A stretch of DNA of 32,000 nt from Thermococcus kodakarensis KOD1. Its GTDB lineage: Archaea; Methanobacteriota_B; Thermococci; Thermococcales; Thermococcaceae. Made by a program: the position numbers and the translations under genes. Below the pieces are notes generated by a model, which saw only the letters and a program-made list of their open reading frames with translations, did no database searches and was not told the origin of the DNA. Location of the stretch: positions 1,710,001 to 1,742,000 of the forward strand of contig NC_006624.1 of NCBI RefSeq assembly GCF_000009965.1, given 5' to 3'. This document shows positions 1,251-18,387 of the stretch, piece after piece (the stretch's first letter is position 1; each line of letters starts with the position of its first letter).

Positions 1251-1323
1251 GCAAGGGGTTAAAAACGTTGGGACGTGGTTAAGTGAACTTTAATGAACAT
1301 AAGAATACCACTAGGCACAAGTT

Positions 1324-1345
1324 TTCCAGTGGAAACGGAACTCTT
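1324..1345 (+). promoter_or_regulatory. mini-ORB / partial ORB (TTCCAGTGGAAACGGAACTCTT), no G-string
   Basis: Exact TTCCAGTGGAAAC core. The extension GGAAACGGAACTCT parallels GGAAACAGAACTCT of the ORB at 1649..1674. Confidence 0.7.
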
Positions 1346-1366
1346 TTTCGATACTCATCGAAAAGA

Positions 1367-1393
1367 CCCCCCAGAGTTTTATTTCCACTGGAA
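1367..1393 (-). promoter_or_regulatory. Full ORB element (minus-strand reading TTCCAGTGGAAATAAAACTCTGGGGGG)
   Basis: Plus strand reads CCCCCCAGAGTTTTATTTCCACTGGAA. The reverse complement gives the ORB core plus a G-string, as in the Orc1/Cdc6 origin recognition boxes defined in Sulfolobus and Pyrococcus. Confidence 0.8.
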
Positions 1394-1648
1394 CCAACTT
1401 TCGGAGAATGGATGGATTTGATGGCTTTAAACAACAGAAAGGGTATTTTTAAAGCGTCTGTGTCAATGTAAATATGATTTTGTTCATTTAAACTTTGTTC
1501 TTTCAGTATTTTTTCAATCTTACATCTTAATACCCGCTAATTATTGAACATTGTTTATGGAAAATTATAAATACATGATGGGAAAGAAAAAGCGGGAGTG
1601 TTTGCACCAAAATTCGATATTGAAAATGGGTGTAGCAACGAAAGCTGC
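1394..1648. other. AT-rich putative duplex unwinding element between the inverted ORBs
   Basis: Strongly AT-rich, for example AAATATGATTTTGTTCATTTAAACTTTGTTCTTTCAGTATTTTTTCAATCTTACATCTTAATA. It is bracketed by ORBs pointing away from each other. Confidence 0.65.
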
Positions 1649-1674
1649 CTCCACTGGAAACAGAACTCTGGGGG
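1649..1674 (+). promoter_or_regulatory. Full ORB element (CTCCACTGGAAACAGAACTCTGGGGG)
   Basis: ORB core (quasi-palindromic variant TCCACTGGA), conserved AACTCT spacer and G-string. Inverted relative to the ORB at 1367..1393. Confidence 0.8.
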
Positions 1675-1785
1675 ACTACAAAATTGTTTATTTTTTGAGA
1701 TTGCGAAAACAAAGATGTTTTCTAAAAATGATCCCTTTTGTCCATCATTGTTCGTGTTTTCATGTATATCCCTGTTCATTCCTCT

Positions 1786-3405: not shown

Positions 3406-5612
3406 TGCTGGTGGAGGACCTCCTTAAGAACAACTACCTTATCACGCCGTCCGCGTATTATCTGCTCTCGGACCACTACAAGAAGGCCTTTACCCTGGCC
3501 GAGCTGATAAAGTTCGCCAAAAACCGGGGGACGTTCGTTGTAGACTCCAACCTTGCCAGAGAGTTCCTGGCGGAAAAGGGCATAATTTCCAGTGGAAATG
3601 GTGCCCTTGACGGTTCAGTACTCTCTGGGATCAGCGTTTCTGAATCTCCTGTGAAACCTAACGGGGAGGCAGTTCTGGAATCTGAATCTGATGAATCTGG
3701 GGCCATTGAATCTTCTCTCCAGGAAGGAGTTGAGGATGGGGTCGAATCTATAGCTGAGCCAAGTGCGGCGTCTGTTGAAGATGTTGTCGTCGCTGGGGAA
3801 AGTTCTCTAGCATCTGAAGGCTCTTCACTGGAGGATGAAATCAACACTGAACCAGAGTTATCATCCTCTATGGATGATGGTGCTGAAGTTGTTCAGTCTT
3901 CTGAGGGGGATGAGACCTCTATTTCCACTGGAAATGCCTTGGGATCTGTGGACTATGGTGGCTCTGATTCTGAATCAGAAGCTTTAGAAGAGGCCTCCTC
4001 TGGGGGGGAGAGTTTCATTTCCACTGGAACTCCTGAAGATGAGGCCCTCCTAGAAGAGTCCCCTGAAGGAGAATTTCCCGATGAAAACGGCTTCTCTGAT
4101 GAGTCCCTTCCAGTGGAAAACGGGAGTGAGAATGGGTATGGGGACTCTGAAGAGTACTACGAGAACGGCGACAACGGTGTCAAGCCGAAGATAGTCTACG
4201 GTGACTACGGTGTCCCAATAGCCTACGTTGCAGATGAAACTCCGGAGGAAGAGAAAGCCTATTCGACGTATTCCGACCTAGTGATAGCCCCAAAGGAGGG
4301 CTTCCACTACAGGGCAAAGGAGATTCCCGACGAGTGGGAGCTGGCCTTTGACGTCAAGAACGTGAAGTTCGAGGTTCCCAAGGTCAAGAACGCCCAGAGC
4401 AAGGAGGGTGAGGTCATAATCCAGGCATATTCCAGCTACTTCAAGTCCAGGCTTAAGAAGATGCGGAGGATCTTCCGCGAGAACCCTGAAATCGGCACGA
4501 TAGTGGATATCGCCAAGCTGAGCTACGTCCGAGAAGATGATGTCACGATAATCGGGCTCGTCAATGAAAAGCGCGAGACAAGAAAGGGCTACCTCTTTGA
4601 GATCGAGGACGCCACGGGAAGGATCAAGGTCTTCATAGGCTCGGACAAGGAGGGTGCAAATGAAGCCTACAGCACGATAATGCCCGATTCTGTTGTTGCT
4701 TTCAGGGGCACCCCCGGGAAGGGAATATTCTTCGCAAACAGGGTGTTCCTCCCGGACGTTCCGAAGTTCAAGAGGTCAAAACCACCGCTTGAGGAGAAGG
4801 TCTACGCCATCCTGCTCAGCGACATCCACGTCGGTAGCAACAAGTTCTGCGAGGAAGCTTTTATCAAGTTCCTTGAGTGGCTCAACGGCGAGGTTAACAG
4901 CAGAACCGAGGAAGAGCTGGTGAGCAGAATCAAGTACATCATTATTGGCGGCGACGTCGTTGACGGCGTCGGCATCTATCCGGGCCAGTATAACGAGCTG
5001 GCGATTCCAGATATCTTCGACCAGTATGAGGCCCTTGCAAACCTGCTGAAACAGGTTCCGGACCACATAACGATGTTCATCGGGCCTGGAAACCACGACG
5101 CGGCCAGAACGGCCCTTCCGCAGCCGGGCTTCTACGAAGAGTATGCAAAGCCGCTCTACAAGCTCAAGAACGCTGTGATAATCAGCAATCCTGCCGTAAT
5201 ACGGCTTCACGGCAGGGACTTCCTCGTAGCCCACGGCAGGGGAATAGAGGACGTCGTTGATTTTGTCCCCAACAGGAGCCACCACAGGCCCGCTGAGGCA
5301 ATGGTAGAGCTTCTTAAGCTCAGACACATAGCTCCGACCTTCGGGAACAAGGTTCCGATAGCTCCCGACCCCGAGGATACGCTCGTCATCGAGAGCGTTC
5401 CAGACCTATTCCAGGCAGGCCACGTCCACGTCATGCAGTACAAGACGTACAACGGCGTCTTCGTCATAAACACCGGTACGTGGCAGGCGCAGACTGAATT
5501 CCAGAAGATGGTGAACATAATCCCGACTCCGGCGAGGGTTCCGATAATCGACGTTGAAACCGCCCGCCTGAGGGCTGTGGTTAGGTTTGACCAGTTTTGC
5601 GAGGGGGTTTGA
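3405..5612 (+). CDS. polB: DNA polymerase D (Pol II) small subunit DP1, with a long acidic insertion
   Basis: The ATG shares its A with the cdc6 TGA (TGATG). C-terminal calcineurin-like phosphoesterase motifs are LSDIHVGS, GGDVVDG, GNHD and GHVH, with an OB-fold region before them. Residues ~61-258 are a Ser/Glu/Asp/Gly-rich low-complexity insertion. Confidence 0.95.
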   Translation: MLVEDLLKNNYLITPSAYYLLSDHYKKAFTLAELIKFAKNRGTFVVDSNLAREFLAEKGIISSGNGALDGSVLSGISVSESPVKPNGEAVLESESDESGAIESSLQEGVEDGVESIAEPSAASVEDVVVAGESSLASEGSSLEDEINTEPELSSSMDDGAEVVQSSEGDETSISTGNALGSVDYGGSDSESEALEEASSGGESFISTGTPEDEALLEESPEGEFPDENGFSDESLPVENGSENGYGDSEEYYENGDNGVKPKIVYGDYGVPIAYVADETPEEEKAYSTYSDLVIAPKEGFHYRAKEIPDEWELAFDVKNVKFEVPKVKNAQSKEGEVIIQAYSSYFKSRLKKMRRIFRENPEIGTIVDIAKLSYVREDDVTIIGLVNEKRETRKGYLFEIEDATGRIKVFIGSDKEGANEAYSTIMPDSVVAFRGTPGKGIFFANRVFLPDVPKFKRSKPPLEEKVYAILLSDIHVGSNKFCEEAFIKFLEWLNGEVNSRTEEELVSRIKYIIIGGDVVDGVGIYPGQYNELAIPDIFDQYEALANLLKQVPDHITMFIGPGNHDAARTALPQPGFYEEYAKPLYKLKNAVIISNPAVIRLHGRDFLVAHGRGIEDVVDFVPNRSHHRPAEAMVELLKLRHIAPTFGNKVPIAPDPEDTLVIESVPDLFQAGHVHVMQYKTYNGVFVINTGTWQAQTEFQKMVNIIPTPARVPIIDVETARLRAVVRFDQFCEGV
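3587..4121. repeat. Four ORB/mini-ORB-like motifs inside the DP1 coding sequence
   Basis: TTCCAGTGGAAA 3587..3598; TTCCACTGGAAA 3923..3934; AGAGTTTCATTTCCACTGGAAC 4009..4030 (21/22 identical to oriC ORB 1373..1394); TTCCAGTGGAAAAC 4108..4121. The motif matches are seen directly; their function is inferred. Confidence 0.6.
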
Positions 5613-8600
5613 ATGAGCGAGGAGATTTACTCGCCTGAAATGAAGGCTTACTTCGAGTCACTCCAGCGCGAGATAGACAGGGCCTATGCGATAGCGAGGA
5701 AGGCCCGCGCACAGGGTAAGGATCCGAGCTTTGACGTTGAGGTTCCGCAGGCTACTGATATGGCTGGCCGTGTTGAGAGCCTCGTCGGACCGCCCGGCGT
5801 GGCCGAGAGGATTAGAGAGCTAGTCAAAGAGTATGGCAAGGAGATAGCTGCCCTTAAAGTTGTTGATGAGATAATCGAGGGCAAGTTCGGTGACCTTGGG
5901 AGCAAGGAGAAGTACGCTGAGCAGGCGGTGAGGACTGCCCTGGCAATTCTAACGGAAGGTATAGTTTCCGCTCCACTGGAAGGTATCGCTGACGTTAAAA
6001 TAAAGCGCAACGAGTGGGCCGACGGGAGCGAGTACTTAGCTCTCTACTATGCCGGCCCGATCAGGAGTTCCGGTGGAACGGCTCAGGCTTTGAGCGTTCT
6101 CGTTGGTGATTACGTGAGGAGAAAGCTCGGTCTCGACCGCTTCAAGCCGAGCGATGAACACATTGAGAGGATGGTCGAAGAGGTTGACCTCTACCACAGG
6201 GCTGTTACGAGGTTGCAGTACCACCCGGAGGCAGACGAAGTAAGGCTCGCCATGAGGAACATCCCGATCGAGATAACCGGTGAGGAGACCGATAAAGTTG
6301 AAGTCTCTCACAGAAACGTCCCCGGTGTTGAGACGAACCACCTCCGCGGCGGTGCCATTCTCGTTCTCGCTGAAGGTGTCCTGCAGAAGGCAAAGAAGCT
6401 CGTGAAGTACATAGACAAGATGGGGATCGAGGGCTGGGACTGGATAAAGGAGTTCGTGGAAGCCAAGGAGAAGGGCAAGAGTAGTGAAGAGAATAAAGAC
6501 GAATCGAAGGCCGAGGACACTGGAACTGAGAGCGTCGCTGAAAAGAAGGAGAATGTCGAGAAGGGTTTCTATTACGAGCTCTACGAGAAGTTCAGGGCCA
6601 ATATTGCCCCCAACAAGAAGTACACCAAGGAGATAATCGGTGGAAGACCCCTCTTCGCCGAGCCTTCGACCAACGGCGGCTTCAGGCTCAGGTACGGCCG
6701 CTCAAGGGTCTCCGGCTTTGCGACCTGGAGCGTCAATCCAGCAACAATGCTCATTCTGGACGAGTTCATAGCAATTGGGACCCAGATGAAGACGGAGAGG
6801 CCAGGTAAGGGTTGTATCGTGACTCCAGCGACTACGGTGGAGGGTCCGATCGTCAGGCTCAAGAACGGGAGCGTGGTAAGGGTAGATGACTATGAAACGG
6901 CTCTAAAGGTCAGGAACGAGGTTGACGAGATCCTATACGTTGGCGATGCGCTCGTAAACTTCGGCGACTTCGTCGAGAACAACCAGACGCTTCTCCCGGC
7001 AAACTACGTCGAGGAGTGGTGGGTTCAGGAGCTAGTACAGGCCATCAAAGACCTCTACGAGGTTGAGCTTCAGCCCTTTGCTGAGAACGACAGGGAAGCC
7101 GTAGAGGAAGCGGCTGAGTACCTTGAGGTAGACCCCGATTTCCTGTGGAACCTCTTGAAGGATCCGCTCAGGGTTAAACCAGATGTGGAGACGGCCATTC
7201 ACCTTTCAACGGTTCTCGACATACCGTTCCACCCGTACTACACCCTCTACTGGAACACCCTTCAGCCGGAAGAGGTCGAGGAACTCCAGAAGGCCCTTCT
7301 GGGTGCTCAGATAGAGTGGGCTGAGTTCAGAAAGAACCGCTTCGCGAAGAAGGTCGTCCTTGAGAACGATAAAAATATCAAACGCTACCTTGAGCTCCTC
7401 GGCCTGCCCCACAGGCTTGAAAGGGTTGAGAAGAAGAGGAAGGTCATCGTCGTTGAATATCCCTGGAGTGCGGCCCTTCTGACGCCGCTCGGCAACCTTG
7501 AGTGGGAGTTCAAGGCAAAGCCCTTCTACACGGTCATAGACATCATCAACGAGAACAACAGGATAAAGCTCCGCGATAGGGGAATAAGCTGGATCGGCGC
7601 GAGGATGGGAAGGCCAGAGAAGGCCAAGGAAAGAAAGATGAAGCCGCCGGTCCAGGTTCTCTTCCCGATAGGCCTTGCCGGCGGCCAGAGCAGGGACATC
7701 AAGAAAGCCGCCGAGGAAGGAAAAACGGCCAGGGTTGAGATAGCCTTCTTCAAGTGTCCCAAGTGCGGCCACGTCGGGCCGGAGCACCTCTGCCCCGTCT
7801 GTGGAACCAGGAAGGAGCTCCTCTGGCACTGCCCGAAGTGTGGAGCGGATTATCCTGAGAGCGATGCAAAGGACTTTAACTACCGCTGTCCGAAGTGCGA
7901 CGTTGAGCTCAAGCCCTACGCGGAGCGGGAGATAAAGCCCGCCGACCTGTTAAGGCAGGCCATGGACAACGTCAAGGTCTACGGCATAGACAGGCTCAAG
8001 GGCGTTAAGGGTATGACCTCCGGCTACAAGATGGCCGAGCCGCTGGAGAAGGGTCTTCTCCGTGTTAAAAACGACGTCTACGTCTTTAAGGATGGTACAA
8101 TCCGCTTCGACGCGACCGACGCTCCAATAACCCACTTCAAACCTAAGGAGATAGGGACGAGCGTCGAGAAGCTGAGGGAGCTCGGCTACACTCACGACTT
8201 CGAGGGGAAGCCCCTCGAGAGGGACGACCAGATACTCGAGCTGAAGGTCCAGGACGTTATTCTGCCCTACGAGGCAGGGAGGTACCTCCTCAAGGTGGCG
8301 CGCTTCATCGATGACCTCCTTGAGAAGTTCTACGGATTACCCAGGTTCTACAATGCCGAGAAGATGGAAGACCTTGTGGGTCACCTCGTTATAGGTCTCG
8401 CTCCACACACCTCGGCTGGAATCATTGGGAGGATAATCGGCTTTTCAGACGTTCTCGTTGGCTACGCACACCCGTATTACCATGCGGCGAAGAGGAGGAA
8501 CTGCTTCCCAGGTGACACGAGGATACTCGTCCAGATCAACGGCCTTCCTCAGAGGATAACCCTCAGGGAACTCTACGACCTCTTTGAAGACGAGCGGTAC

Positions 8601-11009
8601 GAAAACATGGCCTACGTGAGAAAGAAGCCGAAGGCGGACGTCAAAGTTTATTCATTTGACCCAGAGAGCGGAAAGGTCGTCCTTACTGACATAGAGGACG
8701 TCATAAAGGCTCCATCGACGGATCATTTGATAAGGTTCGAGCTTGAGCTCGGCAGGAGCTTTGAGACGACTGTTGACCATCCGGTGCTTGTCTACGAAAA
8801 CGGCAAGTTCGTTGAGAAGAGGGCCTTTGAGGTTAGGGAAGGAGATAGAATCCTCGTGCCTAATTTGAAGCTTCCTGAAAAGAACATTGACTACCTTGAT
8901 CTGCTAAAAGAGTTCTCCAGAGAGGAGTTTGCTCATCTTCACGATAGGATAATGGTTCGTGGAATAGCAGAGTGGCTCCGCTCAGTTGAGGCTGATGTAA
9001 AAGAAGACTACCTGCGCAGAGACTCCATACCTTTGAGCGTCCTTCTAAGGGTTCTCACGGAGAAAGAGATATCCATTGAGGAAGTACCTTCCTGCTGGCT
9101 TGGATTTAAGCGCGATAAAGTAAGAATCAAGCGGTTCGTACCTCTCAAACCTCTCCTCCGCGTCGTTGGGTACTACCTTGCCGAGGGCTATGCAAGAGAA
9201 AGCAAGAGTGTCTATCAGCTGAGCTTCTCGATGGCAGAGAAGGAGGTTAGGGAAGACCTCAAGAGGGCACTCAGAGAAGCTTTCGGGGACGGTTTTGGTA
9301 TCTACGAGAGGGGAGGGAAAGTTACAGTTGGCTCGCGTATTCTCTACCTGCTGTTTACGGAAGTTCTGAAGGCTGGAAAGAACGCATACAGCAAGCGCGT
9401 TCCGTCTCTTGTTTTCACACTGCCACGTGAAGCCGTTGCAGAGATGCTTAAGGCATACTTCGAGGGAGATGGAAGTGCCCTTAAGTCCGTGCCTCGTGTG
9501 GTAGCGTATAGTGTTAATAAGGCCCTCCTTGAGGACATTGAGACACTGTTGCTTGCCAAGTTCGGCATTCGTGGCTATTACACCTTTGACAATAATGCCA
9601 ATAGAGGCAACGCTCGCGGGAGACTGTATCACGTTGAACGCGGAACTGAGGCTCCAGTTTCAAAAGTCTACGCCCTTAACATTGCAGGTGAGCACTACCA
9701 CAGGTTCTTCAATAGCATTGGCTTTGTGAGTGAACGCAAGAACTCAATCTATGAGCTTCATGCTGAGAAATCTCCAGCTCAGGATAGATATTCCTCACAG
9801 AATGGCTGGCTGGTGAAAGTCAGGCGCATTGAATACATCACACCAAAAGATGATTTCGTGTTCTCTTTAAACGCTAAAAAGTATCATAATGTGATAATTA
9901 ACGAAAGTATTGTAACACACCAATGCGACGGCGACGAAGACGCTGTAATGCTCCTCCTCGATGCCCTCCTCAACTTCAGCAAATACTATCTGCCCGAAAA
10001 GCGCGGCGGCAAGATGGACGCTCCTCTGGTCGTTACCACCCGTCTTGACCCGAGGGAGGTAGACAGCGAGGTTCACAACATGGATGTGGTCAGGTACTAT
10101 CCTCTCGAGTTCTACAAGGCCACCTACGAGCTCAAGTCTCCAAAGGAAGTGAAGGTCATAGAGCGCGTTGAGGACCGCCTGGGCAAGCCCGAGATGTACG
10201 AGGGGATAAAGTTCACCCACGATACGGACGACATTGGTCTCGGCCCGAAGATGAGCCTGTACAAACAGCTCGGCGACATGGAGGAGAAGGTCGCCAGACA
10301 GCTCGCTCTGGCAGAGAGGATAAGGGCCGTGGATGAGCACCACGTTGCTGAAACGATAATCAACTCTCACCTCGTTCCGGACCTTAGAGGCAACCTTAGG
10401 AGCTTCACGAGGCAGGAGTTCCGCTGCGTCAAGTGCAACACGAAGTACAGAAGGCCACCTTTGACCGGCAAGTGCCCGAAGTGCGGCGGAAAGATAGTCC
10501 TCACCGTCAGCAAGGGTGCAATAGAAAAGTACCTGCCCACGGCCAAGATGCTCGTTACTAAGTACAGAGTAAAGGACTACACGAGGCAGAGGATATGCAT
10601 AACCGAGAAGGACATAAAGACGCTCTTCGAGAACGTCTTTCCTGAGAAACAGAGGACCCTCATGGGCTTCTCGGCGGACATCTGCGAGAAGATGGTCAAG
10701 GAGAGGACGGGTCATTCCAACGGAAAGAACGGCTACCTCGACGAGTTCAACGGGAAGAACGGAAAGGCCAGCAAAAAGTCTGGGAGTTTAGCCTCAAAGC
10801 TCTCTGGAAAAGGCAAAGAACCCTCGAAAAAGAAGGAGAGTGCAAAACCCAAACGCTCCGAGAAGGTCAAGAACCTCACCAGCTTTGAAGCGGCCGCTAA
10901 GAATGAGCAGGCAAGAGGAACGGCAGGGAACGCTAAGAAGGCTGAGAGTGAGAAGCCAAAGAGAAAGAAGCGGAAAGGCATAAGCCTCGACGAGTTCTTC
11001 GGCTCGTAA
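5613..11009 (+). CDS. polC: DNA polymerase D (Pol II) large subunit DP2, intein-containing precursor (1798 aa; 1324 aa after splicing)
   Basis: Starts immediately after the DP1 stop. Cys clusters are CPKCGHVGPEHLCPVCG, CPKCGADY..CPKCD and CVKCNTKYRRPPLTGKCPKCGG. The conserved DP2 catalytic region is split by an intein. Lys-rich C-terminal tail ends in ISLDEFF. Confidence 0.95.
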   Translation: MSEEIYSPEMKAYFESLQREIDRAYAIARKARAQGKDPSFDVEVPQATDMAGRVESLVGPPGVAERIRELVKEYGKEIAALKVVDEIIEGKFGDLGSKEKYAEQAVRTALAILTEGIVSAPLEGIADVKIKRNEWADGSEYLALYYAGPIRSSGGTAQALSVLVGDYVRRKLGLDRFKPSDEHIERMVEEVDLYHRAVTRLQYHPEADEVRLAMRNIPIEITGEETDKVEVSHRNVPGVETNHLRGGAILVLAEGVLQKAKKLVKYIDKMGIEGWDWIKEFVEAKEKGKSSEENKDESKAEDTGTESVAEKKENVEKGFYYELYEKFRANIAPNKKYTKEIIGGRPLFAEPSTNGGFRLRYGRSRVSGFATWSVNPATMLILDEFIAIGTQMKTERPGKGCIVTPATTVEGPIVRLKNGSVVRVDDYETALKVRNEVDEILYVGDALVNFGDFVENNQTLLPANYVEEWWVQELVQAIKDLYEVELQPFAENDREAVEEAAEYLEVDPDFLWNLLKDPLRVKPDVETAIHLSTVLDIPFHPYYTLYWNTLQPEEVEELQKALLGAQIEWAEFRKNRFAKKVVLENDKNIKRYLELLGLPHRLERVEKKRKVIVVEYPWSAALLTPLGNLEWEFKAKPFYTVIDIINENNRIKLRDRGISWIGARMGRPEKAKERKMKPPVQVLFPIGLAGGQSRDIKKAAEEGKTARVEIAFFKCPKCGHVGPEHLCPVCGTRKELLWHCPKCGADYPESDAKDFNYRCPKCDVELKPYAEREIKPADLLRQAMDNVKVYGIDRLKGVKGMTSGYKMAEPLEKGLLRVKNDVYVFKDGTIRFDATDAPITHFKPKEIGTSVEKLRELGYTHDFEGKPLERDDQILELKVQDVILPYEAGRYLLKVARFIDDLLEKFYGLPRFYNAEKMEDLVGHLVIGLAPHTSAGIIGRIIGFSDVLVGYAHPYYHAAKRRNCFPGDTRILVQINGLPQRITLRELYDLFEDERYENMAYVRKKPKADVKVYSFDPESGKVVLTDIEDVIKAPSTDHLIRFELELGRSFETTVDHPVLVYENGKFVEKRAFEVREGDRILVPNLKLPEKNIDYLDLLKEFSREEFAHLHDRIMVRGIAEWLRSVEADVKEDYLRRDSIPLSVLLRVLTEKEISIEEVPSCWLGFKRDKVRIKRFVPLKPLLRVVGYYLAEGYARESKSVYQLSFSMAEKEVREDLKRALREAFGDGFGIYERGGKVTVGSRILYLLFTEVLKAGKNAYSKRVPSLVFTLPREAVAEMLKAYFEGDGSALKSVPRVVAYSVNKALLEDIETLLLAKFGIRGYYTFDNNANRGNARGRLYHVERGTEAPVSKVYALNIAGEHYHRFFNSIGFVSERKNSIYELHAEKSPAQDRYSSQNGWLVKVRRIEYITPKDDFVFSLNAKKYHNVIINESIVTHQCDGDEDAVMLLLDALLNFSKYYLPEKRGGKMDAPLVVTTRLDPREVDSEVHNMDVVRYYPLEFYKATYELKSPKEVKVIERVEDRLGKPEMYEGIKFTHDTDDIGLGPKMSLYKQLGDMEEKVARQLALAERIRAVDEHHVAETIINSHLVPDLRGNLRSFTRQEFRCVKCNTKYRRPPLTGKCPKCGGKIVLTVSKGAIEKYLPTAKMLVTKYRVKDYTRQRICITEKDIKTLFENVFPEKQRTLMGFSADICEKMVKERTGHSNGKNGYLDEFNGKNGKASKKSGSLASKLSGKGKEPSKKKESAKPKRSEKVKNLTSFEAAAKNEQARGTAGNAKKAESEKPKRKKRKGISLDEFFGS
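8502..9923 (+). mobile_element. Intein (474 codons) with LAGLIDADG homing-endonuclease domain in DP2
   Basis: In-frame. The N-terminal splicing block CFPGDTRILV follows extein ...AAKRRN. Block B is TVDHPVLV. Two LAGLIDADG motifs are present (VVGYYLAEGYA, LKAYFEGDGSA). The C-terminal block is VFSLNAKKYHNVIINESIVTHQ, followed by the +1 Cys of CDGDEDA. The flanks closely resemble the P. abyssi PolII mini-intein as I recall it. Confidence 0.9.
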
Positions 11010-11829: not shown

Positions 11830-12801
11830 ATGTGGGTGGTTAACGTGCCGGATTATTTTTTGGTGTCTTTATCAAATCGAGAAAACTTAGAGCTCTGTGT
11901 TAAGTACAATTTAGCGGGGTTTACGAACAGTATAAATGGTCTCTGGACTTTCTTTGACATAAGTGTTGGGGATTATATATCATTTCTCTACGGGGCCAGG
12001 GTTCGAAATCTGTACCGTGTCGTCAGGAAGGTAGCTTATAAAAACGCAAGGGATCTTCCTCCCTGGCCTCCAATAACTTTCAGATCACAAAAGACTTATT
12101 ACTTCCCATTCCGGCTGTTTTTGAAACCAGAACGAGAATTTAACGAGCCTATGGTTCGGCAAGAGTTCTCTTATGTTGCCGAAAACTTGCTATTAAGAGG
12201 AGGTTATCGTAAAACTCATTTTCAAGCCGATACTGTAACATTTTACAAGGTTTCTGAGATGGGCAATCCTTTTGCTGGAGAGCCGGAGTACTTGGAGCTT
12301 AATGCAGAAACATTTGAGCCAAAAATTGTGTTTGACAGGAAAAACCAGAGAATTCCTGAGAAGTTCTACTTTAGGGAGCTTATACTCCAGTCGCTGGTGA
12401 GAAAGAAACTTGGAGTCACGGTTCTCCGTGATGTTCTGGAGATATTTGAAGTAGATAATTCTCCAGAGGAATTTGAAGTACTTGGTGAAAAAGCTCTTCC
12501 AGAAGGATACGTGGACATTTTCATAAAACTGAAGCATCCTTCTGCCCTTAATAGGTACATTCTTGCGGAAGTTAAGACTGGAAAAGCCCAGAAAAAGGAT
12601 GTGGAGCAACTAAGAAAGTATCTAAGTGAATACGGGAACGAGGCGGTGGGTGGACTGTTGATAGCCAAGGACTTCTCAAGATCGGCCTTTGAAGATGATC
12701 GGATAATTCCTGTTAGATATTACTTCAAGGAATTAGATCCCTTTGGGGAGTATAGTTATGATGAGCTTTTGAGTATGTTGAAGCTGGAGATAGTAGTATA
12801 A
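11830..12801 (+). CDS. Predicted fusion of a PUA/EVE-like N-terminal domain and a NucS/RecB-type PD-(D/E)xK nuclease C-terminal domain
   Basis: 323-aa ORF in an AT-rich islet. The C-terminal region [11 protein letters not shown]...[45 protein letters not shown] aligns by eye with the NucS/EndoMS catalytic domain pattern GIVDVL...VVLELKRRRA..HAVRQLKSYV....V.GILVAPS (D...E-x-K). The N-terminal [23 protein letters not shown]...[18 protein letters not shown] resembles EVE/PUA-like beta-barrels; this part is tentative. Confidence 0.6.
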
Positions 12802-12939
12802 AGAAGCGGTTGTTTATGTTTGTGTCCTCTGGTATTACATACTCTTTAGCTGATGAAATGTACCCGGATACTGACAACTTCTAGGTCTTGGGTTTTGATC
12901 AAGGAATCCCTGAGGAGGAAGAGTTTGGTGGCCTTCCTT

Positions 12940-13400
12940 TAAGAGGGGAAAACAATTAGGGTTTTTCCTTGCTCTTTTAACGCCCTTTGGTCGTTATACT
13001 ACAAGTAAATCTATTGAAAACCGCCAATTGGGGGGGGGGGGAGAATCATGAAAACTTGGCAATTTAGAAAGGATATTCACTCTTTGATGAAACTTTGCCC
13101 TGCAAAGTTTCTTTGGTCAGGCTTTTTCCAAAAGCTTGCTGGCGAAAAGTTCCACCAAAGGCACTTTCCATAAAATGCTGGGTGTTAATCGTGCACTCTT
13201 CTCCTCCCGATCTCTAAGATGGGTTTAACTGCCGAGGTAGTTTTATGAAGTTTGCTTTTTTCTGGCGTCCTTTGGATGCTTTGTTGGCGACAAACACTTT
13301 ATAAGAGCAAATGAGGAGTAAATTCCTCCCAGGTTTGTATTTTCAGAAAAGCATACCCTTTCTGCCATCCCTCGAGGAATTTGAACGGGGTTGAAAGCTA
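12940..13400. repeat. Dispersed ~1.7-unit copy of the tRNA-linked repeat family
   Basis: TCTTTGATGAAACTTTGCCC (13081..13100) is 20/20 identical to 16879..16898. The degenerate hairpin AACGCCCTTTGGTCGTT+ATACT (12979..13000), TGGGTTTAACT (13220..) and ...AAAAGCATAC..CTGCCATCC..TTGAACG..TGAAAGC (13348..13399) are colinear with units of the 16081..17177 array. Confidence 0.75.
13030..13041 (+). repeat. Homopolymeric G12 tract inside the repeat copy
   Basis: ATTGGGGGGGGGGGGAGAATCA. The homologous position in the unit at ~16830 has GTTGAGCATTGAGAATCA instead. Confidence 0.9.
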
Positions 13401-13545
13401 TGATTGCACAAGCAAGGGCTGATATGGTGCAGGGCCTGAGTTTGAACCTTGTAAATGAAATTCTAGTATAAGTATAGTTGGTGTGAGAATAATTTGAAGA
13501 AAACCATAGATAAAGTGGCGGATATAAGGAGAAATGCACCTGGCA

Positions 13546-14124
13546 TTATTTCTTTTCGGAGTATGGGTTAAATACCAGAGTCCTGCCTTCGTAAGGGGAA
13601 AAACTCACATATAACTTTCCGTTTTGAAGTTTTACTTGCGGATCAAATGGATAGCAACCGCCTCCAGTTCTACAGCCTTTAATTTCATGATAATACCAAT
13701 CCACCTTTCCACTCCCTAAATCAAATGCCCAGACATAGCGGTTTTGCAGATGGTAAACTATGTCAATATCCTTGTAAAGTCCTTCAATCCCAACTATTCC
13801 CCTCTCACCAACCACCGCCACATAAAGGGTTTCATTGTGAATTAAACACTGACCTTCACCACTGAAGTCTCTGCTTAGATTAACTTGAATGCTCTTAATG
13901 ACGTCCTCATTTTTCATCAACAGTATAAGGCCATTCTTTACTTCAACAGGACAATCCGAGTTTCCATTTAGTGAACTGTCAAGTACTTCGTTAGGCAATT
14001 TGCCCTCTTGGATCGGCGTGGTGTATTTATAATCGTAATATGTAAGCCTCAGATAGCTAACTTTCAGAGGTACAACTGGCAAAAGAAAAAATAATAGCAA
14101 CAGAGCCTTCACTTTTCTTCTCAT
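13546..14124 (-). CDS. Hypothetical exported/membrane-anchored protein (signal peptide, beta-rich, 4 Cys)
   Basis: MRRKVKALLLLFFLLPVVPLKVS is a signal/anchor sequence. AT-rich codon usage matches the islet. The ORF-track start is TTG 14130; ATG 14124 is preferred. No family recognised. Confidence 0.6.
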   Translation of the reverse strand: MRRKVKALLLLFFLLPVVPLKVSYLRLTYYDYKYTTPIQEGKLPNEVLDSSLNGNSDCPVEVKNGLILLMKNEDVIKSIQVNLSRDFSGEGQCLIHNETLYVAVVGERGIVGIEGLYKDIDIVYHLQNRYVWAFDLGSGKVDWYYHEIKGCRTGGGCYPFDPQVKLQNGKLYVSFSPYEGRTLVFNPYSEKK

Positions 14125-14258
14125 TTCCAAATCCCTCCAATATATTCCACGACCTCATTATCACTCTTTAGCTTTTGTAGTTCTGCGTAATTAGCGTCTC
14201 TTACGATGATTTTAAATCTTATATGAGCAACTTTTGTATTCTCAAACTTTTCTAACAT
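14121..14258 (-). CDS. Possible 45-aa small protein translationally coupled to the exported protein
   Basis: Read by eye: MLEKFENTKVAHIRFKIIVRDANYAELQKLKSDNEVVEYIGGIWK. Its TGA overlaps the downstream ATG (ATGA). Below the ORF-track length cutoff. Confidence 0.3.
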   Translation of the reverse strand: MLEKFENTKVAHIRFKIIVRDANYAELQKLKSDNEVVEYIGGIWK

Positions 14259-14277
14259 TTGGTCTTTTGTAGTTTTG

Positions 14278-14367
14278 CAGGTTGTGATTAGACATTCATC
14301 TCAAAGCAAACTCTTTAAAAATCAGTCAAAAACTTTCCGCCAGCGCTTTCGTCAGAAAGGGCTGTTA
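14278..14367. repeat. Truncated terminal part of the repeat unit abutting the tRNA-His 3' end
   Basis: AACTTTCCGCCAGCGCTTTCGTCAGAAAGGGCTGTT (14331..14366) matches 17141..17176 at 35/36 positions. The upstream segments TTGTGATT...CTCAAAG..CTCTTTAAAAA are also shared. Confidence 0.8.
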
Positions 14368-14445
14368 TGGGGCCGGGGCCGGGATTTGAACCCGGGCTAG
14401 GGGATCCACAGTCCCCTGTGCTAACCAGGCTACACCACCCCGGCC
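14368..14445 (-). tRNA. tRNA-His (anticodon GUG) with encoded G-1 and CCA
   Basis: The reverse complement folds as a cloverleaf: G-1, acceptor GCCGGGG/CCCCGGC, D-arm GTGTAGCCTGGTTAGCAC, anticodon stem-loop GGGGA-CTGTGGA-TCCCC, T-arm CCGGG-TTCAAAT-CCCGG, discriminator C, CCA. Confidence 0.93.
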
Positions 14446-15225: not shown

Positions 15226-15977
15226 CGCATCTCGTTCCACTTAGGATTTCTATACTTCTCTTCTATCAGCTTTTCCGCTAGCTCAAGCTCGTAGTCTGTC
15301 AGCTCGCCCTCCTCAAGCTCAAAGGCGTTGGAGAAGCTCTCCTTCAGCAGTTCGTAGGCTTCCCAGCGGCTCAGCTTTACTCCCTCGCGTTCAAGGGTTG
15401 TAACCCGCTCCCAGATGCTCGAAATACCTTTGTCCTTCAGCTTCTCCTTTGAGACGCGGAGAACCCTTCCCAGAATCTCGACCCTCGTTGCATACATAAA
15501 GGTGCCGTGCTGGAGGATTACTCCCCGTCTCCTCGTCTGGGCCGAGCCGCTTATCTTCTTCCCGTTGGCAACTATGTCGTTCAGTCCTGAGAAGCCCGCT
15601 TTAAGGCCGAGGTCTTTCAGGGCATCCACGAGCGGGCCCGCTAGGTAGCGGTAGCTCTCTTCGACGTTCTTAAGGGCAGGATGGTAGTCTTCCCCGATGA
15701 CAATTGAATAAGTTATCTCGCCGTACTCGTCGTGGAAGACGCTTCCGCCGCCAGTTATCCTCCTCACGACCGGAATACGGAGCTTTTTTGCCTCATCGAG
15801 ATTAACATCGTGGACTACGCTCTGGAACCTGCCGATTGTAACTGAGCTGGGGGAGAAGGCGTAGAGCCTCACAGTGTCCGGGACTTTCCCCTCGATTCTC
15901 GCTCTCATTATGGCCTCGTCTATGGCCATCTGAACTTCGGGCCTGGCCACTATGAGCGGAATGAAGCGCATCGTCAT
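15222..15977 (-). CDS. Lipoate-protein ligase A family, catalytic (BPL/LPL) domain protein
   Basis: Motifs RRITGGGSVFHD and GKKISGSAQ are typical of the LplA catalytic domain. The ORF-track TTG start (16097) adds 40 unconserved residues that overlap the repeat region. ATG 15977 (MTMRFIPL...) is preferred. The ~250 aa size suggests a stand-alone N-domain subunit. Confidence 0.8.
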   Translation of the reverse strand: MTMRFIPLIVARPEVQMAIDEAIMRARIEGKVPDTVRLYAFSPSSVTIGRFQSVVHDVNLDEAKKLRIPVVRRITGGGSVFHDEYGEITYSIVIGEDYHPALKNVEESYRYLAGPLVDALKDLGLKAGFSGLNDIVANGKKISGSAQTRRRGVILQHGTFMYATRVEILGRVLRVSKEKLKDKGISSIWERVTTLEREGVKLSRWEAYELLKESFSNAFELEEGELTDYELELAEKLIEEKYRNPKWNEMR

Positions 15978-16080
15978 TTTAACCACCACCGTTAAAAACT
16001 CCGGAGGGCTTTTAAGTCCAGCGATGATGACGCCCAAGCCCTCCTGACGGGTGATGAGAGCGGTCACCACTGAGCGGATG

Positions 16081-17177
16081 GAAACTTTGCCCCTCAAGTT
16101 TTTTCAAAACCTGGTCAAGATTTACCCTTCTTTTTGAACTTGCCTGTTAAGAGGTGTATGCCTGCTCAGAAGGCAACTTTGTGCGGATTTGCTCTCAAAT
16201 CTCTCGTTAATTGTGATTTCACCTTTCTTTTTAGCGCTCGAAGAGCGCTATACTGTGGGGAAATCCCATGCGATTGGCAAATTGATAAGTAAACCTCTCA
16301 TAAAATTTAGCCTGTTTCAAAAGCATACTATCCTTCCGCCATCCGTTAAGGACGCTTGAACGCTAGTGAAAGCGGCGCTGAAACTTTTAGAAAAAGCTTC
16401 ACCAAAGTTCGTGGTTCCTATTTAACGGGTCGTTTTGGGCGGATTTTCCTTTTGAACGCTGTCTTGAGTCGTGAATTCTATTTTTAATTCGCTTGTTTTT
16501 CTTGAGTTTGCTTTTTAATTGACGCCCGTAGGGCGTCAAGGCGAGAAAACTCCTTTTCATCAGGCTGAAACTTAGGGGAATTCACTGATGTCTGGCTTGT
16601 GTATCTTGAAAATCCTCAGTAAACAGCAATTTTAGAAAAGAACCACGAACCTTGATCAAACTTCGCAAGGAAGCTTTTGGAAAAAGCTTCACCAAAAGCT
16701 CGAATGTCTTCTTGATGTTGGCTTGATGCGATTAGATTCTCTTGGTAGAGGGGCAGAGTAATGCGGGTTTTCTTATTTTTAACGCCTTTCGGGCGTTATA
16801 CTGTGAGTAAACCCCCTTGAAACCGCTAGTTGAGCATTGAGAATCACTGGAAAACAGGAAGCTCAAAAGGACATTCCATCTTTGATGAAACTTTGCCCTT
16901 CAAGCTTTTGGAAAAAGCTTGAGCAAAAGTTGCTCTTCTTCTCGAACTTTGCTTATTGAGGAGTGTATGCTCCACTATAAAGCGAGTTTGAGTGGGTTTA
17001 ACTCCAAAATCCCCCAGCTGATTGTGATTTTGGCTTTCTTTTTAGTGCCCTTCGGGCACTATACGGTGATAAAATCCTTTTGAATCTAGCAACTCGGTAA
17101 GTAAACCCACTCAAAGGCTAGCTCTTTAAAAACGCATACTAACTTTCCGCCAGCGCTTTCGTAAGAAAGGGCTGTTG
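16081..17177. repeat. Array of four tandem degenerate ~230-300 bp repeat units ending at the 3' end of tRNA-Pro
   Basis: Unit anchors (G/C)AAACTT lie at 16081, 16380, 16657 and 16887. Units contain a palindrome AAGCTTTTGGAAAAAGCTT (exact at 16671..16689 and 16902..16920, degenerate in the other two units) and a T-run plus GC hairpin plus TATAC(T/G)GTG. Hairpins are at 16232..16250, 16521..16537, 16781..16797 and 17043..17061. There is no ORF of 60 aa or more in 16098..17085. Confidence 0.85.
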
Positions 17178-17255
<78 letters not shown>

Positions 17256-17283
17256 ACTTCCCGATGATACCGCACCAAAAGGA

Positions 17284-17295
17284 CTTATAAAGTTT
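17284..17295 (-). promoter_or_regulatory. BRE/TATA promoter of tRNA-Pro
   Basis: The minus strand reads AAACTTTATAAG ~29 nt upstream of the tRNA 5' end. Confidence 0.6.
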
Positions 17296-17328
17296 ACGGA
17301 CTATCAAGACAAAGCGGGGTGCTGAAAA

Positions 17329-18387
17329 GTGAAAATCAGCGTTGTAATCCCAACGTACAATGAAAGGGAGAATCTGCCCGAACTTGTTGAGAGGCTCTCG
17401 CGGGCGCTTCAGGGTTATGAGTACGAGATTGTGATAGTTGACGATGATTCACCTGATAAGACGTGGGGGCTCGCGGAGGAGCTGGCAAGGAAGTACCCCA
17501 TTAAGGTCATCAGGAGGACGAAAGAAAAGGGGCTTTCCTCGGCTGTAATCCGTGGGTTTAAGGAGGCCTCTGGTGATGTATTCGTTGTGATGGACGCGGA
17601 CCTTCAGCATCCCCCCGAGAAGGTTCCCGAGCTCATCGAGGCGATAAAACGCGGTGCAGACATCGCTATAGCCAGCAGGTACGTCCCAGGCGGCGCCGTT
17701 AAGAACTGGTACTGGTACAGGAAGCTGATATCCAAAGGGGCCATCATGATAGGCCGCGTTGCCCTTCCCAGAATCAGGAACGTAAAGGATCCTGTAAGTG
17801 GCTTCTTCGCCCTCAGAAGGGAGGTCGTTGAAGGCGTTGAGCTTAATCCTGTGGGCTTTAAGATTCTCATGGAGATACTGGTTAAGGGACACTACAATAA
17901 CGTCAGGGAAGTTCCTTTCACATTCGGGCTGAGAAAAGCCGGAGAAAGCAAGCTCGGAAGCAGGACTATTGTAAACTATCTCAGACACATCTACAGGCTT
18001 ATGAGGTGGGAGGGGGAAATAGACAGGCTAGTGAAGTTCTCCCTGGTTGGTCTCTCTGGTGTCCTCGTAAACGAAGGTTTCCTCTGGGCGTTTGTGGAGT
18101 TTTTTGGATGGGACAAGGTGTTCTCCAACATCCTGGCAACTGAGCTCGCCATACTCAACAACTTCACGTGGAATGACATCTGGACTTTTAGGGATCTGAA
18201 GAACAAACCTCTCCTGAAGAGGCTGGTAAGCTTTCACGTTGCGGCTTTGAGCGGTGCCCTTGTCCAGTGGGCGATCTACGTTATCCTTATGGCAGTTGGA
18301 GTGCACTACCTTCTCGCGAATCTGATTGGAATAGTTGTGTCTTTCATCGTGCGCTTTGCGGTTAACAGGCACGTAACCTGGGGCTGA
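17329..18387 (+). CDS. Dolichol-phosphate mannose synthase-type GT2 glycosyltransferase with C-terminal GtrA-like 4-TM domain
   Basis: GTG start. N-terminal ISVVIPTYNERENL, VDDDSPD and DADLQHPP (DxD) are GT-A family 2 motifs. The C-terminal four hydrophobic helices end ...RFAVNRHVTWG (GtrA-like). Size and architecture (352 aa) match archaeal DPMS. Confidence 0.85.
   Translation: MKISVVIPTYNERENLPELVERLSRALQGYEYEIVIVDDDSPDKTWGLAEELARKYPIKVIRRTKEKGLSSAVIRGFKEASGDVFVVMDADLQHPPEKVPELIEAIKRGADIAIASRYVPGGAVKNWYWYRKLISKGAIMIGRVALPRIRNVKDPVSGFFALRREVVEGVELNPVGFKILMEILVKGHYNNVREVPFTFGLRKAGESKLGSRTIVNYLRHIYRLMRWEGEIDRLVKFSLVGLSGVLVNEGFLWAFVEFFGWDKVFSNILATELAILNNFTWNDIWTFRDLKNKPLLKRLVSFHVAALSGALVQWAIYVILMAVGVHYLLANLIGIVVSFIVRFAVNRHVTWG

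Follow-up and report, generated by a model that had tools for sequence, protein, structure and literature searches.

Introduction

What occupies the 1.1 kb behind the tRNA-Pro gene of the archaeon Thermococcus kodakarensis KOD1, where no gene is annotated and where degenerate copies of one unit carry GC-rich hairpins changed on both arms? The analyzed stretch of DNA (hereafter, the window) is 32,000 nucleotides long and covers positions 1,710,001 to 1,742,000 of the forward strand of contig NC_006624.1. Positions below refer to the window, and the genome coordinate is obtained by adding 1,710,000. The array in question, at 16076-17177, consists of four diverged units between the genes TK1908 and TKt35. 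A reading of this DNA from its letters alone (hereafter, the sequence-only reading) had described an array of four degenerate units without open reading frames (ORFs), and had offered as explanations a family of structured RNAs, hairpin elements mobilized by a transposase, or scars of repeated integration at the tRNA. All the elements it described were found where it had placed them.

The best reading of these units is that they represent a Thermococcus-specific family of non-coding palindromic repeats, 230-300 bp each, piled in tandem behind tRNA genes. The family is apparently undescribed so far: the literature searched, whose coverage was incomplete, yielded no description of tRNA-flank repeats in Thermococcus. 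Positions of TK and TKt genes were taken from the gene table, and transcription start sites from the other supplements, of the primary transcriptome study of KOD1 (Jäger 2014, PMC4247193).

Results

Architecture of the four units

All four units lie on the plus strand. U1 (16076-16366), defined by alignment and profile search (nhmmer E = 7.5e-41), is of subtype A1 with a C-type tail. It is followed by U2 (16367-16651; subtype B1; E = 7.2e-34), U3 (16652-16881; subtype B; E = 3.5e-45), and U4 (16882-17177; subtype A2; E = 1.2e-56). The last unit abuts tRNA-Pro(CGG) (TKt35, 17178-17255), which is encoded on the minus strand, and therefore the array is located 3' of the tRNA. No annotated feature is present from TK1908 to TKt35, and ORFs in the array are all 56 amino acids or shorter, in agreement with the description of an ORF-free array of four units. 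U1 and U4 are true paralogs with 71% identity over 269 nt (blastn E = 3e-24), whereas U2 and U3 share only blocks with them. The identity of about 70% that had been estimated by eye for all units holds for the former pair and fails otherwise. Tandem Repeats Finder reported nothing in the array, the copies being too diverged. The array was rejected as a CRISPR (short palindromic repeats, clustered and regularly interspaced), as the sequence-only reading had done, given units of 230-296 nt, at most 71% identical, and the lack of short identical repeats. The GC content of the units is 40-43%, compared with 52-55% in the neighborhood.

Each unit follows the same order: an AT-rich boundary palindrome, then a palindrome of about 190 bp with helices P1-P4, then a tail that contains a TATA-like A/T tract and a short hairpin at the tRNA. 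The GC hairpin (P4) is the apex of this imperfect palindrome of four helices. In U1, it occupies 16232-16250 (TAGCGCTC-GAA-GAGCGCTA), with a T-run at 16228-16232 and TATACTGTG at 16249-16257. The apexes of the other units likewise have perfect stems: TTGACGCCC/GGGCGTCAA in U2 (16519-16539), TAACGCC/GGCGTTA in U3 (16780-16798), and TAGTGCCC/GGGCACTA in U4 (17043-17061). These stems are 1-2 bp longer than had been noted. The apex loops were considered as UUCG or GNRA tetraloops, which would mark the plus strand as RNA, and this was rejected, since the full stems leave loops of 3 nt. The motif TATAC(T/G)GTG, reported earlier for every unit, follows three of the four hairpins (at 16249, 16797, and 17060) and is missing in U2, which lacks TATACTGTG and has an insertion of about 29 nt past the hairpin. 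The window was screened for hairpins with a perfect stem of at least 6 bp, at least four G/C pairs, and a loop of 3-5 nt; among these, only the four array apexes are preceded by a T-rich run.

The palindromic body is best seen in U4 (16965-17139), where P1 (16965-16970/17134-17139), P2 (16987-17000/17102-17115), P3 (17026-17031/17071-17076), and P4 (17043-17061) share the midpoint 17052 in the apex loop. Here, P2 is complementary at 14 of 14 positions, P1 pairs GTATGC at 16965 with GCATAC at 17134, and P3 pairs GATTTT at 17026 with AAAATC at 17071. The long hairpin of U4 folds on both strands, at z = -3.7 and -4.5 relative to shuffled sequences, and most other units are alike. In U3, an outer inverted repeat of about 20 nt (16695-16715/16863-16883, 81% complementary) is found; such a repeat near the ends of B-type units is one helix of the nested full-length palindrome and not a distinct terminus.

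The boundary palindrome is H1 (AAGCTTTTnGAAAAAGCTT), H2 (GAAACTTTGC..GCAAAGTTTC), or both, with T-runs on both strands. H1, in the form AAGCTTTTGGAAAAAGCTT, is located at 16671-16689 (T4 on the plus strand, T5 on the minus; T5 plus T4 on the tRNA strand). As had been reported for a second palindrome exact in two units and degenerate in two, it has another exact copy at 16902-16920 and degenerate copies at 16381-16399 and about 16097-16115. At 16887-16933, the two are combined in a composite palindrome H2[H1] (GAAACTTTGC ... AAGCTTTTGGAAAAAGCTT ... GCAAAAGTTGC) that was folded as one extended hairpin. The A-type tail of U4 contains TTTAAAAA at 17126-17133, the TATA box of the start 17152(+) discussed below; read on the tRNA strand, this box gives a T5 run some 45 nt beyond the end of the tRNA. 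The tail closes with the hairpin H3 (17153-17177; GCGCTTTC-GTAA-GAAAGGGC plus TGTTG), which runs straight into the 3' end of the tRNA; the H3 loop is TTAC when read on the strand of the tRNA.

Other copies and their position relative to tRNA genes

An nhmmer profile built from 18 units finds 20 units, with E-values from 1e-22 to 1e-56, in KOD1, in a metagenome-assembled genome (MAG) of Thermococcaceae (loci L002-L005), in T. stetteri (L007), and in T. pacificus (L009, L055). The sample comprises four genomes, about 20 units, and five subtypes, and the cross-species search that had been proposed thus yields units in three further Thermococcus genomes. The MAG was identified by a scan for the exact apex motif in 185,579 genomes (one per species; KOD1 evidently not covered), which gave its four loci and no other species representative; a match in a Clostridia MAG was rejected as a chance hit. 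T. stetteri and T. pacificus were taken at the orthologous tRNA-Pro locus, L055 being a further locus of the latter. In metagenomes, a scan using the left arm of the A type turned up a single contig, which represents a strain variant of a known locus. Classified by the apex stem, the subtypes A1 (AGCGCTC), A2 (AGTGCCC), B (AACGCCC), B1 (GACGCCC), and C (GCGTCC) have a common architecture. Conservation between genomes can be high: U4 is 83% identical to the unit behind tRNA-Met in the MAG (L002), and U1 is 76% identical to the MAG units behind the Asn-Met operon and tRNA-Val. Subtypes can thus still be recognized in distant species, where they stand behind different tRNAs.

Arrays adjoin tRNA-Pro and tRNA-His in KOD1; elongator tRNA-Met (with an intron), the Asn-Met operon, tRNA-Val, and tRNA-Trp (with an intron) in the MAG; tRNA-Pro in T. 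stetteri; and tRNA-Pro and tRNA-Gly in T. pacificus. All nine arrays have one polarity relative to the tRNA, and each stops exactly at the 3' end of an opposite-strand tRNA. The link to tRNA, proposed from the single contact with tRNA-Pro, is therefore real and general. No unit was observed in about 26 kb of tRNA-free Thermococcus DNA (L054, L056) or elsewhere in the about 145 kb of Thermococcus DNA examined. Two tRNA genes without units are tRNA-His of T. stetteri and tRNA-Gln of T. pacificus.

The contact with the tRNA is made by one of two junction modules. The A-type tail ends in ...CCGCCAGCGC-TTTCGTAAGAAAGGGCTGTTG, and the B-type tail in ...TTTGAT-GAAACTTTGCnnnGCAAAGTTTC-TA, each followed by the TGG of the tRNA. 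The T. pacificus version of the B-type junction hairpin is CAAACTTCGC..GCGAAGTTTG, with both arms changed. The H3 junction is also found at tRNA-His of KOD1 (14343-14367), at tRNA-Met in L002, and at the Asn-Met operon in L003, and a plain H2 hairpin, whose arm is GAAACTTTGC or nearly so, adjoins the tRNAs in L004, L005, L007, and L009. At the C-to-B1 junction in the MAG (L005 4945-5010), a 30-nt palindrome GGAAACTTTGCCCCGCAAAGTTTCATCAA is present that is missing at the otherwise colinear junction of KOD1 (16375-16420); hence H2 behaves as an insertion/deletion module in its own right.

The second array of KOD1, behind tRNA-His (14368-14444, minus strand), is in decay. A pile-up on the plus strand (12932-13400) contains a B-type unit and a C-type unit, the latter at 13146-13400 (nhmmer E = 1.6e-33 and 3.4e-27). 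The B-type apex (12978-12996) has a broken stem, and an H2 hairpin (13089-13111) and an inverted H1 are also present. A run of 13 G at 13031-13044 breaks the right arm of this B-type unit, in the place of GTTGAGCATT in other copies. An isolated A-type tail on the plus strand (14294-14367), 84% identical to the tail of U4 (nhmmer E = 0.0011), abuts tRNA-His.

Compensatory changes in the palindrome

Base pairing in all four helices is maintained through changes in both arms, and the fold is selected or maintained. Pairs entered the model if a forced-hairpin fold showed them in 8 or more of the 20 units. This gave 26 pairs, which fall into four helices; an additional outlying pair of P2 was tallied as a fifth helix by the counting tool. 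Since RNAalifold applied to the 20-unit MAFFT alignment gave the apex hairpin only, the outer helices were defined from constrained folds of individual units, and pairs were counted on MAFFT alignment A2. Over 20 units and 26 pairs, 83.3% of cells are paired, compared with 37-54% for slid partners and 73.5% for shuffles. Changes on both sides are seen in 18 of 26 pairs (4-8 slid, 12.2 in shuffles). The covariation score is 0.372, compared with 0.085-0.131 for slid partners and 0.213 ± 0.013 for shuffles, of which none of 500 reaches this value; the model derives from the same sequences. For the apex hairpin alone, 93.7% of the pairing is kept over 20 members, and six of eight pairs have changed on both sides. 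The compensatory stem changes seen in four copies are thereby extended to the family, and so is the conclusion that structure is under selection, with one correction: the hairpin is not a free-standing module, since the three outer helices covary too.

With the apex removed, 11 of 19 units still have arms whose pairing exceeds that of every one of 100 shuffles (mean z = -2.8), and this test is failed by the clearly decayed copies STE_B and KOD_C. The helices differ in sequence between subtypes while pairing is retained. P1 is GTATGC/GCATAC in A and GAATGTCC/GGACATTC in B; P2 is GGGTTTA/TAAACCC in A and AGATTCTC/GAGAATC in B; P3 is GATTTT/AAAATC in A, GGGTTT/AAACCC in B, and AAGTTTG/CAAAC in C, a subtype for which P1 and P2 have no entry. 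In well-kept A units, 24-26 of the 26 pairs are Watson-Crick (24 in U1 and 26 in U4). Between the helices, asymmetric segments (the T-run on the left and TATACTGTG on the right) are kept in all subtypes.

One locus sampled in two strains captures the process under way. Here P1, which spans 170 nt, is GCATGC/GCATAC in L057, with a C·A mismatch, and GCATGC/GCATGC in L002; the form seen in the other A2 units is GTATGC/GCATAC. Within the unit, only about six positions distinguish the two strains, and the series reads as a two-step compensatory path. The mismatched cells comprise 39 of G·T type and 31 of A·C type. As the two types are about equal, neither RNA strand is favored, and compensatory change without strand bias points to a part in recombination at 85 °C for the DNA, folded as a hairpin or cruciform.

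Turnover of the arrays and traces of integration

The flanks of the Pro array are 94-95% identical between KOD1 and T. stetteri on both sides (15940-16077, including the small RNA gene sR61, and 17176-17338, including the tRNA and its promoter). Between these flanks, KOD1 has 1.1 kb of array and T. stetteri 0.31 kb, and only pieces of 20-30 nt can be aligned. What T. stetteri retains is half of a unit like U1, namely the right half, and a decayed unit of the B1 kind, the tail of which meets tRNA-Pro via H2. Relative to it, KOD1 has U3 and U4 extra, on the tRNA-proximal side. Arrays thus turn over fast and discrete units are conserved in patches, a combination that is the signature of spread or recombination at the level of DNA.

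A break of synteny coincides with an array in the MAG, where an R1P-kinase gene and tRNA-Trp flank it (L005 4600-5900). This tRNA-Trp is the neighbor of the EamA and GcvT genes, a place taken in T. pacificus by tRNA-Gly, which has its own array. In three other species (L054, L055, and L056 were compared), the R1P-kinase gene is six genes beyond GcvT. The MAG R1P-kinase is at most about 80% identical to orthologs in named Thermococcus, and no KOD1 ortholog is among the 120 matches listed.

The tRNA-His 3' flank (12800-14444) is a variable island with a GC content of 0.34-0.44, and it retains a trace of integration. At 13410-13448 on the minus strand, the end of the tail and about 25 nt of the tRNA-His 3' end recur in degenerate form (a pseudo-att), with about 31 of 39 aligned positions matching 14353-14392. 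Between this pseudo end and the live tRNA-His stands the low-GC gene TK1906 (13546-14124), a signal-peptide ORF without a Pfam match. Upstream in the same flank, TK1905 (11830-12801) has weak, sub-threshold matches to PD-(D/E)XK nucleases. In T. stetteri, this flank contains a restriction-modification system with a ResIII helicase and an N6/N4 methyltransferase (L007 1671-7606). Because KOD1 and T. stetteri carry different cargo here, the tRNA-His flank is an insertion hot spot.

Mobile elements with the same sequences were sought among plasmids, phages, and viral contigs. A BLAST search of plasmids and phages with the KOD1 arrays and one MAG array gave tRNA-like or chance matches only. In IMG/VR, four pattern scans, followed by BLAST and nhmmer on the matches, gave no units. 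The boundary palindrome AAGCTTTTAGAAAAAGCTT does recur in AT-rich (26-35% GC) viral contigs (IMG/VR L010-L033), including giant-virus MAGs, for example at L024 2475-2493, L028 5434-5585, and L031 4204-4250. As in Thermococcus, it is followed there by (N)NCCAAAA, and often it is in tandem with GAAACTTTTTT..AAAAAGTTTC palindromes. These viral copies have no nearby tRNAs and no further likeness to the units, and they may reflect convergent use of T-run palindromes as two-way stop signals.

Promoters and transcripts in the units

The tails of the units carry real archaeal promoters, because mapped starts fall in them at TATA spacing. The check for transcription that had been proposed can thus be answered from published start-site maps: starts lie inside the units, and the region is not silent. 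In U1, an orphan small RNA (sRNA) starts at 16275 (1726275) on the minus strand (TTS1726275_-, Table S6), about 27 nt from the TATA-like CATAAAATTTAG at 16297-16308. At the junction with tRNA-Pro, the start at 17152 (1727152) on the plus strand (TTS1727152_+, 'antisense TKt35', Table S8) is the A of CCGCC[A]GCGC. The antisense start at tRNA-His, 14342 (1724342) on the plus strand, is the identical base of an identical tail motif. Each of these starts lies 26 nt short of the end of the tRNA, and TTTAAAAA precedes it by 26-27 nt. In the tRNA-His tail, a single A/T box (14315-14322) has mapped starts both ways, 14342(+) and 14301(-) (1724301), the latter about 27 nt from the TATA-like box. Two more starts, 13219(-) (1723219) and 13326(+) (1723326), lie in the C-type unit. 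The units also supply stop signals, namely the T5 run opposite the A/T tract, about 45 nt beyond the tRNA, and the T-runs of H1. The mapped starts do not frame the palindrome, and for this reason we treat the transcripts as by-products.

Genome-wide, 23 of 53 orphan sRNA starts taken from Table S6 are within 1.5 kb downstream of a tRNA 3' end, compared with about 1.45 expected (binomial P about 3e-22), an expectation from genome length alone that ignores the confinement of sRNA starts to intergenic DNA. These 23 starts are accounted for by 15 tRNAs. Those of the 23 that lie inside the window map to defined unit positions, and we infer that those at loci outside it belong to the unit family.

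Genomic setting of the array

TK1908 (1725222-1725971) encodes a protein with a lipoate ligase domain, and beyond TKt35 (1727178-1727255) stands TK1909 (17329-18387; 1727329-1728387), which encodes dolichol-phosphate mannose synthase. On the left, the array is bordered by the C/D box sRNA Tko-sR61 (16020-16075, plus strand), with a start at 1726020(+) (Jäger 2014, Tables S5 and S6); this sRNA scores below all gathering scores of Rfam C/D box models (best sR1, 33 bits versus 45). A T6 run that probably ends Tko-sR61 sits in the first, degenerate boundary palindrome of the array (region 16020-16115). In Rfam 15, only two tRNAs pass the gathering score in the window, and nothing was found in 16076-17177 at E up to 10.

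Some 14 kb separate the array from the Cdc6/PolD genes (2143-11009) and from the replication origin (about 1250-2143). Repeats of the origin recognition box (ORB) type, TTCCAGTGGAAAC, occur at about 1325, 1385, and 1655 in the origin region upstream of cdc6 (window 1300-1700); they were considered as relatives of the units and rejected, their sequence being unrelated. Orphan starts 1711476+ and 1711597+ (Jäger 2014) are located in the AT-rich core of the origin region. A short-read contig of the same strain (L001; Logan DRR165549_142) has its left end at about 17083, inside U4 just past the apex hairpin, which hints at a nearly identical copy in another place of the KOD1 genome or at a drop of coverage at the hairpin.

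Discussion

Origin and maintenance of the units

The explanation we favor, with a probability of roughly 0.4, is that the units are palindromic DNA repeats of a selfish, recombining kind, aimed at the 3' flanks of tRNA genes, the transcripts being by-products. Under this model, units would spread and turn over as DNA. Recombination would be directed at the tRNA 3' end, probably by a promiscuous Thermococcales tyrosine integrase acting in trans, or would occur ectopically between arrays, and the palindrome would be required as a folded DNA hairpin or cruciform during that recombination. Orphan sRNAs and antisense-tRNA transcripts would arise as by-products of A/T tracts acting as TATA boxes and of T-run terminators, and the homology shared behind different tRNAs would be a substrate for chromosome inversions that break at tRNAs. 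Enzymes of a suitable kind are described: at least 14 different tRNAs serve, with their 3' halves, as targets of pT26-2-family integrases, which are oriented antiparallel to the tRNA and have an att that ends 6 nt past it (PMC7253208).

Several observations weigh against this explanation. No tRNA fragments separate the four units of the Pro array, and no target-site duplications were found in the nine arrays inspected, the junctions of which are H1/H2 palindromes or the tRNA end. The 32-kb window contains no integrase or transposase gene, and none is tied to the units; no unit copies were found in plasmid, phage, or IMG/VR sequences. A protein search with the antisense-tRNA-Pro peptide gave no integrase, just a spurious hypothetical protein of 72 amino acids. 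The pair model was derived from folds of the same sequences, which favors it over slid controls, and the sample is small, with five subtypes giving only a handful of independent compensatory events. A role for RNA, or for double-stranded RNA made from both strands, is also possible.

Such an RNA role would be central if the units were structured non-coding RNA genes, the palindrome folding as a long RNA hairpin and the covariation reflecting selection on RNA. The folding of U4 clearly below shuffled controls on either strand and the covariation in all four helices fit this scheme. So do the starts at proper TATA spacing within units, the T5 stop that H1 offers on the minus strand about 200 nt downstream, and the excess of orphan starts near tRNAs (23 of 53), by which the family may be the main source of 'T. 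kodakarensis-specific' sRNAs. Nevertheless, we consider it unlikely. The counts of G·U-compatible and A·C mismatches reveal no strand bias, and the starts are placed badly for such a gene: 16275(-) is inside the right arm, and 17152(+) and 14342(+) are outside the palindrome and read into the tRNA. On the plus strand, the T5 run just before the apex would stop the RNA ahead of the hairpin. A GC content of 40-43% is low for a structured RNA at 85 °C, the arrays are not conserved between sister species, and Rfam gives no match. Thus, the part of the earlier proposal that stands is that transcripts arise in the units; structure at the level of DNA fits better than a family of structured RNAs. Double-sided stop signals could instead make the units host cis-acting two-way terminators or insulators behind strongly transcribed tRNA genes. 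T4-T6 runs are present on both strands in H1, H2, and the tails, the end of the tRNA is followed at a distance of about 40-48 nt by a T5-T6 run whichever junction type is used, the first degenerate H1 gives a T6 run right after Tko-sR61, and the polarity relative to the tRNA is fixed. Archaeal termination requires only oligo-T, and this need would not select a 190-nt palindrome with GC helices. One unit would be sufficient, yet there are up to four per array; tRNA-His of T. stetteri and tRNA-Gln of T. pacificus do without any; and the units themselves initiate transcription, including transcription antisense to the tRNA. We regard this function as improbable.

Integration could also have produced the arrays passively, as end pieces of plasmids or viruses that repeatedly entered the tRNA 3' half and were then mostly deleted, the tail being a former integrase promoter region. 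The degenerate copy of the tRNA-His 3' end with its tail (13410-13448) and the low-GC cargo gene before the live tRNA are what such scars would leave, and the tRNA-His flank is variable (TK1905 and TK1906 in KOD1, a restriction-modification system in T. stetteri). Suicidal Thermococcales integrases lie antiparallel to the tRNA, with an att ending 6 nt past it (PMC7253208), and the tail promoter fires into the tRNA, with GTG or ATG at the junction. The trace at tRNA-His speaks for this part of the sequence-only reading, but in the Pro array the lack of tRNA fragments between units does not. Nor is any integrase-like coding remnant seen: the ORFs are at most 56 amino acids long, indels between copies are not multiples of three, the antisense-tRNA-Pro peptide matches no integrase, and no sequenced plasmid or virus is similar. 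Passive decay also leaves unexplained the compensated pairing and the identity of 76-83% between distant genomes, so that scarring is a doubtful account of the whole. In a further reading, units would be captured in one direction, added singly at the tRNA-proximal junction by a tyrosine recombinase that reads the folded palindrome and not its sequence, as integron integrases read attC; we give this reading little weight. Finally, the compensation could be neutral, near-palindromes being kept perfect by intrastrand templated repair or gene conversion without functional selection. The pattern is indeed equal on both strands, and well-kept units are nearly all Watson-Crick. Against this, templated repair would tend to symmetrize the conserved non-complementary stretches between the helices (the T-run versus TATACTGTG), and since these asymmetric segments separate the helices, both a recent inverted duplication and simple self-templated repair are argued against. 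Decayed copies (STE_B and KOD_C) exist, so that pairing is not automatic, and neutrality is the least credible of these alternatives, with very little probability left to it.

Comparison with known repeat systems

By analogy, selfish repeats of the favored kind may work most like bacterial intergenic palindromic repeats or MITEs (miniature transposable elements with inverted repeats), and they resemble attC sites in forming a tandem array that keeps its fold. Similarly to the units, the bacterial repeats REP/BIME, ERIC/IRU, RUP, and Correia are short non-coding imperfect palindromes in many intergenic copies, often transcribed, with promoter or terminator signals and with pairing kept. The units differ in being archaeal and, at about 190 nt and four helices, far longer than a REP of 20-40 nt. 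They seem confined to the tRNA 3' flank, in tandem and with one polarity, and are not dispersed, and they have no known partner transposase such as the REP-associated tyrosine transposase (RAYT). The REP-type 5' tetranucleotide GT(A/G)G or GTAG is absent: the apex is preceded by TTTTT(A) in A and B, which have no tetranucleotide in common with B1 and C at this place.

Like MITEs and palindrome-associated transposable elements (PATEs), the units are non-autonomous, hairpin-forming, and within 100-400 bp, and they could be moved by an enzyme encoded elsewhere. They differ from MITEs in the absence of target-site duplications, and a parent insertion sequence (IS) with the same ends was not seen, nothing similar being present in the plasmid and phage collections or the scanned viral contigs. 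In contrast to PATEs of IS200/IS605, each unit has one nested palindrome and not separate left-end and right-end hairpins. No Y1 transposase gene was found in the window, where only window genes were inspected. The units were also considered as members of the sRk48/sRk52 RNA family (Phok 2011), whose core ...GAAGATGTGGGGAGTTCCGTTCCCCC... is found at the 3' end of OrfB genes such as TK1842 or as an orphan, and this was rejected, as there is no likeness to the published alignment. The single KOD1 copy of that family, at 1653785-1654163, is outside the window (Phok 2011). Separately, GGGCTGTT and TTCGTAA occur both in the tRNA-proximal tail CTTTCGTAAGAAAGGGCTGTTG (17153-17177 and 14343-14367) and in GGGCTGTTTCGTAA, the left flank at several sRk48/52 loci of Pyrococcus (Phok 2011, Figure S5). 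These loci are tied to IS200/IS605 OrfB genes. A T. stetteri unit (L007 9740-9770) carries GAAGGGCTGTTTCGAATG. The sharing possibly reflects an IS200/IS605 link or chance, and is a lead only.

Integron arrays and the units have in common a tandem arrangement at a fixed site and a fold kept over sequence by compensating changes, attC being read as folded DNA. In the units, the fold is kept and the sequence is not (18 of 26 pairs changed on both sides, 83% of cells paired), a likeness of possible working and not of membership. The array has no adjacent integrase gene, attI, or promoter, the units have no ORFs, the anchor is the tRNA 3' end, and nothing shows that units are captured one at a time. 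The Thermococcales elements pT26-2/TKV and pTN3, with SSV-type integrases, also enter the 3' half of many tRNAs and place new DNA a few bases past the tRNA, and one degenerate duplicate of a tRNA 3' end is seen here too (13410-13448). These elements, unlike the units of 0.25 kb of non-coding DNA, are 10-30 kb long and protein-coding, with int(N)/int(C) and exact att repeats; the Pro array has no att repeats, and int(N)/int(C) fragments were not found at the array ends, where ORFs do not exceed 56 amino acids and the peptide search gave no integrase. Hairpin-forming repeats of mitochondrial genomes, for example in sponges, are reported to invade intergenic regions of compact genomes in the same way (PMC2800124); this is an analogy only, hosts and sequences being unrelated.

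Implications

T. kodakarensis is the main genetic model for hyperthermophilic archaea. Its primary transcriptome contains 55 orphan small RNAs, mostly 'T. kodakarensis-specific', AU-rich, and unexplained, and the authors of that study do not recognize a repeat family among them (PMC4247193). A single repeat family may explain much of this orphan class and the reported antisense-tRNA transcripts as well. If the improbable capture reading were true, tRNA 3' ends of Thermococcus would be attI-like docking sites of a non-coding 'cassette' system, which would also seed promoters, antisense-tRNA transcripts, and homology for inversions.

In Thermococcales, the breakpoints of chromosome inversions fall at pairs of different tRNA genes, and the pTN3 integrase did not recombine tRNA-Leu with tRNA-Thr in vitro (Cossu et al., PMC5495485). 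Shared blocks of 230-300 bp behind different tRNAs are a concrete and testable substrate for such inversions, and this repeat family may underlie the tRNA-associated inversion breakpoints.

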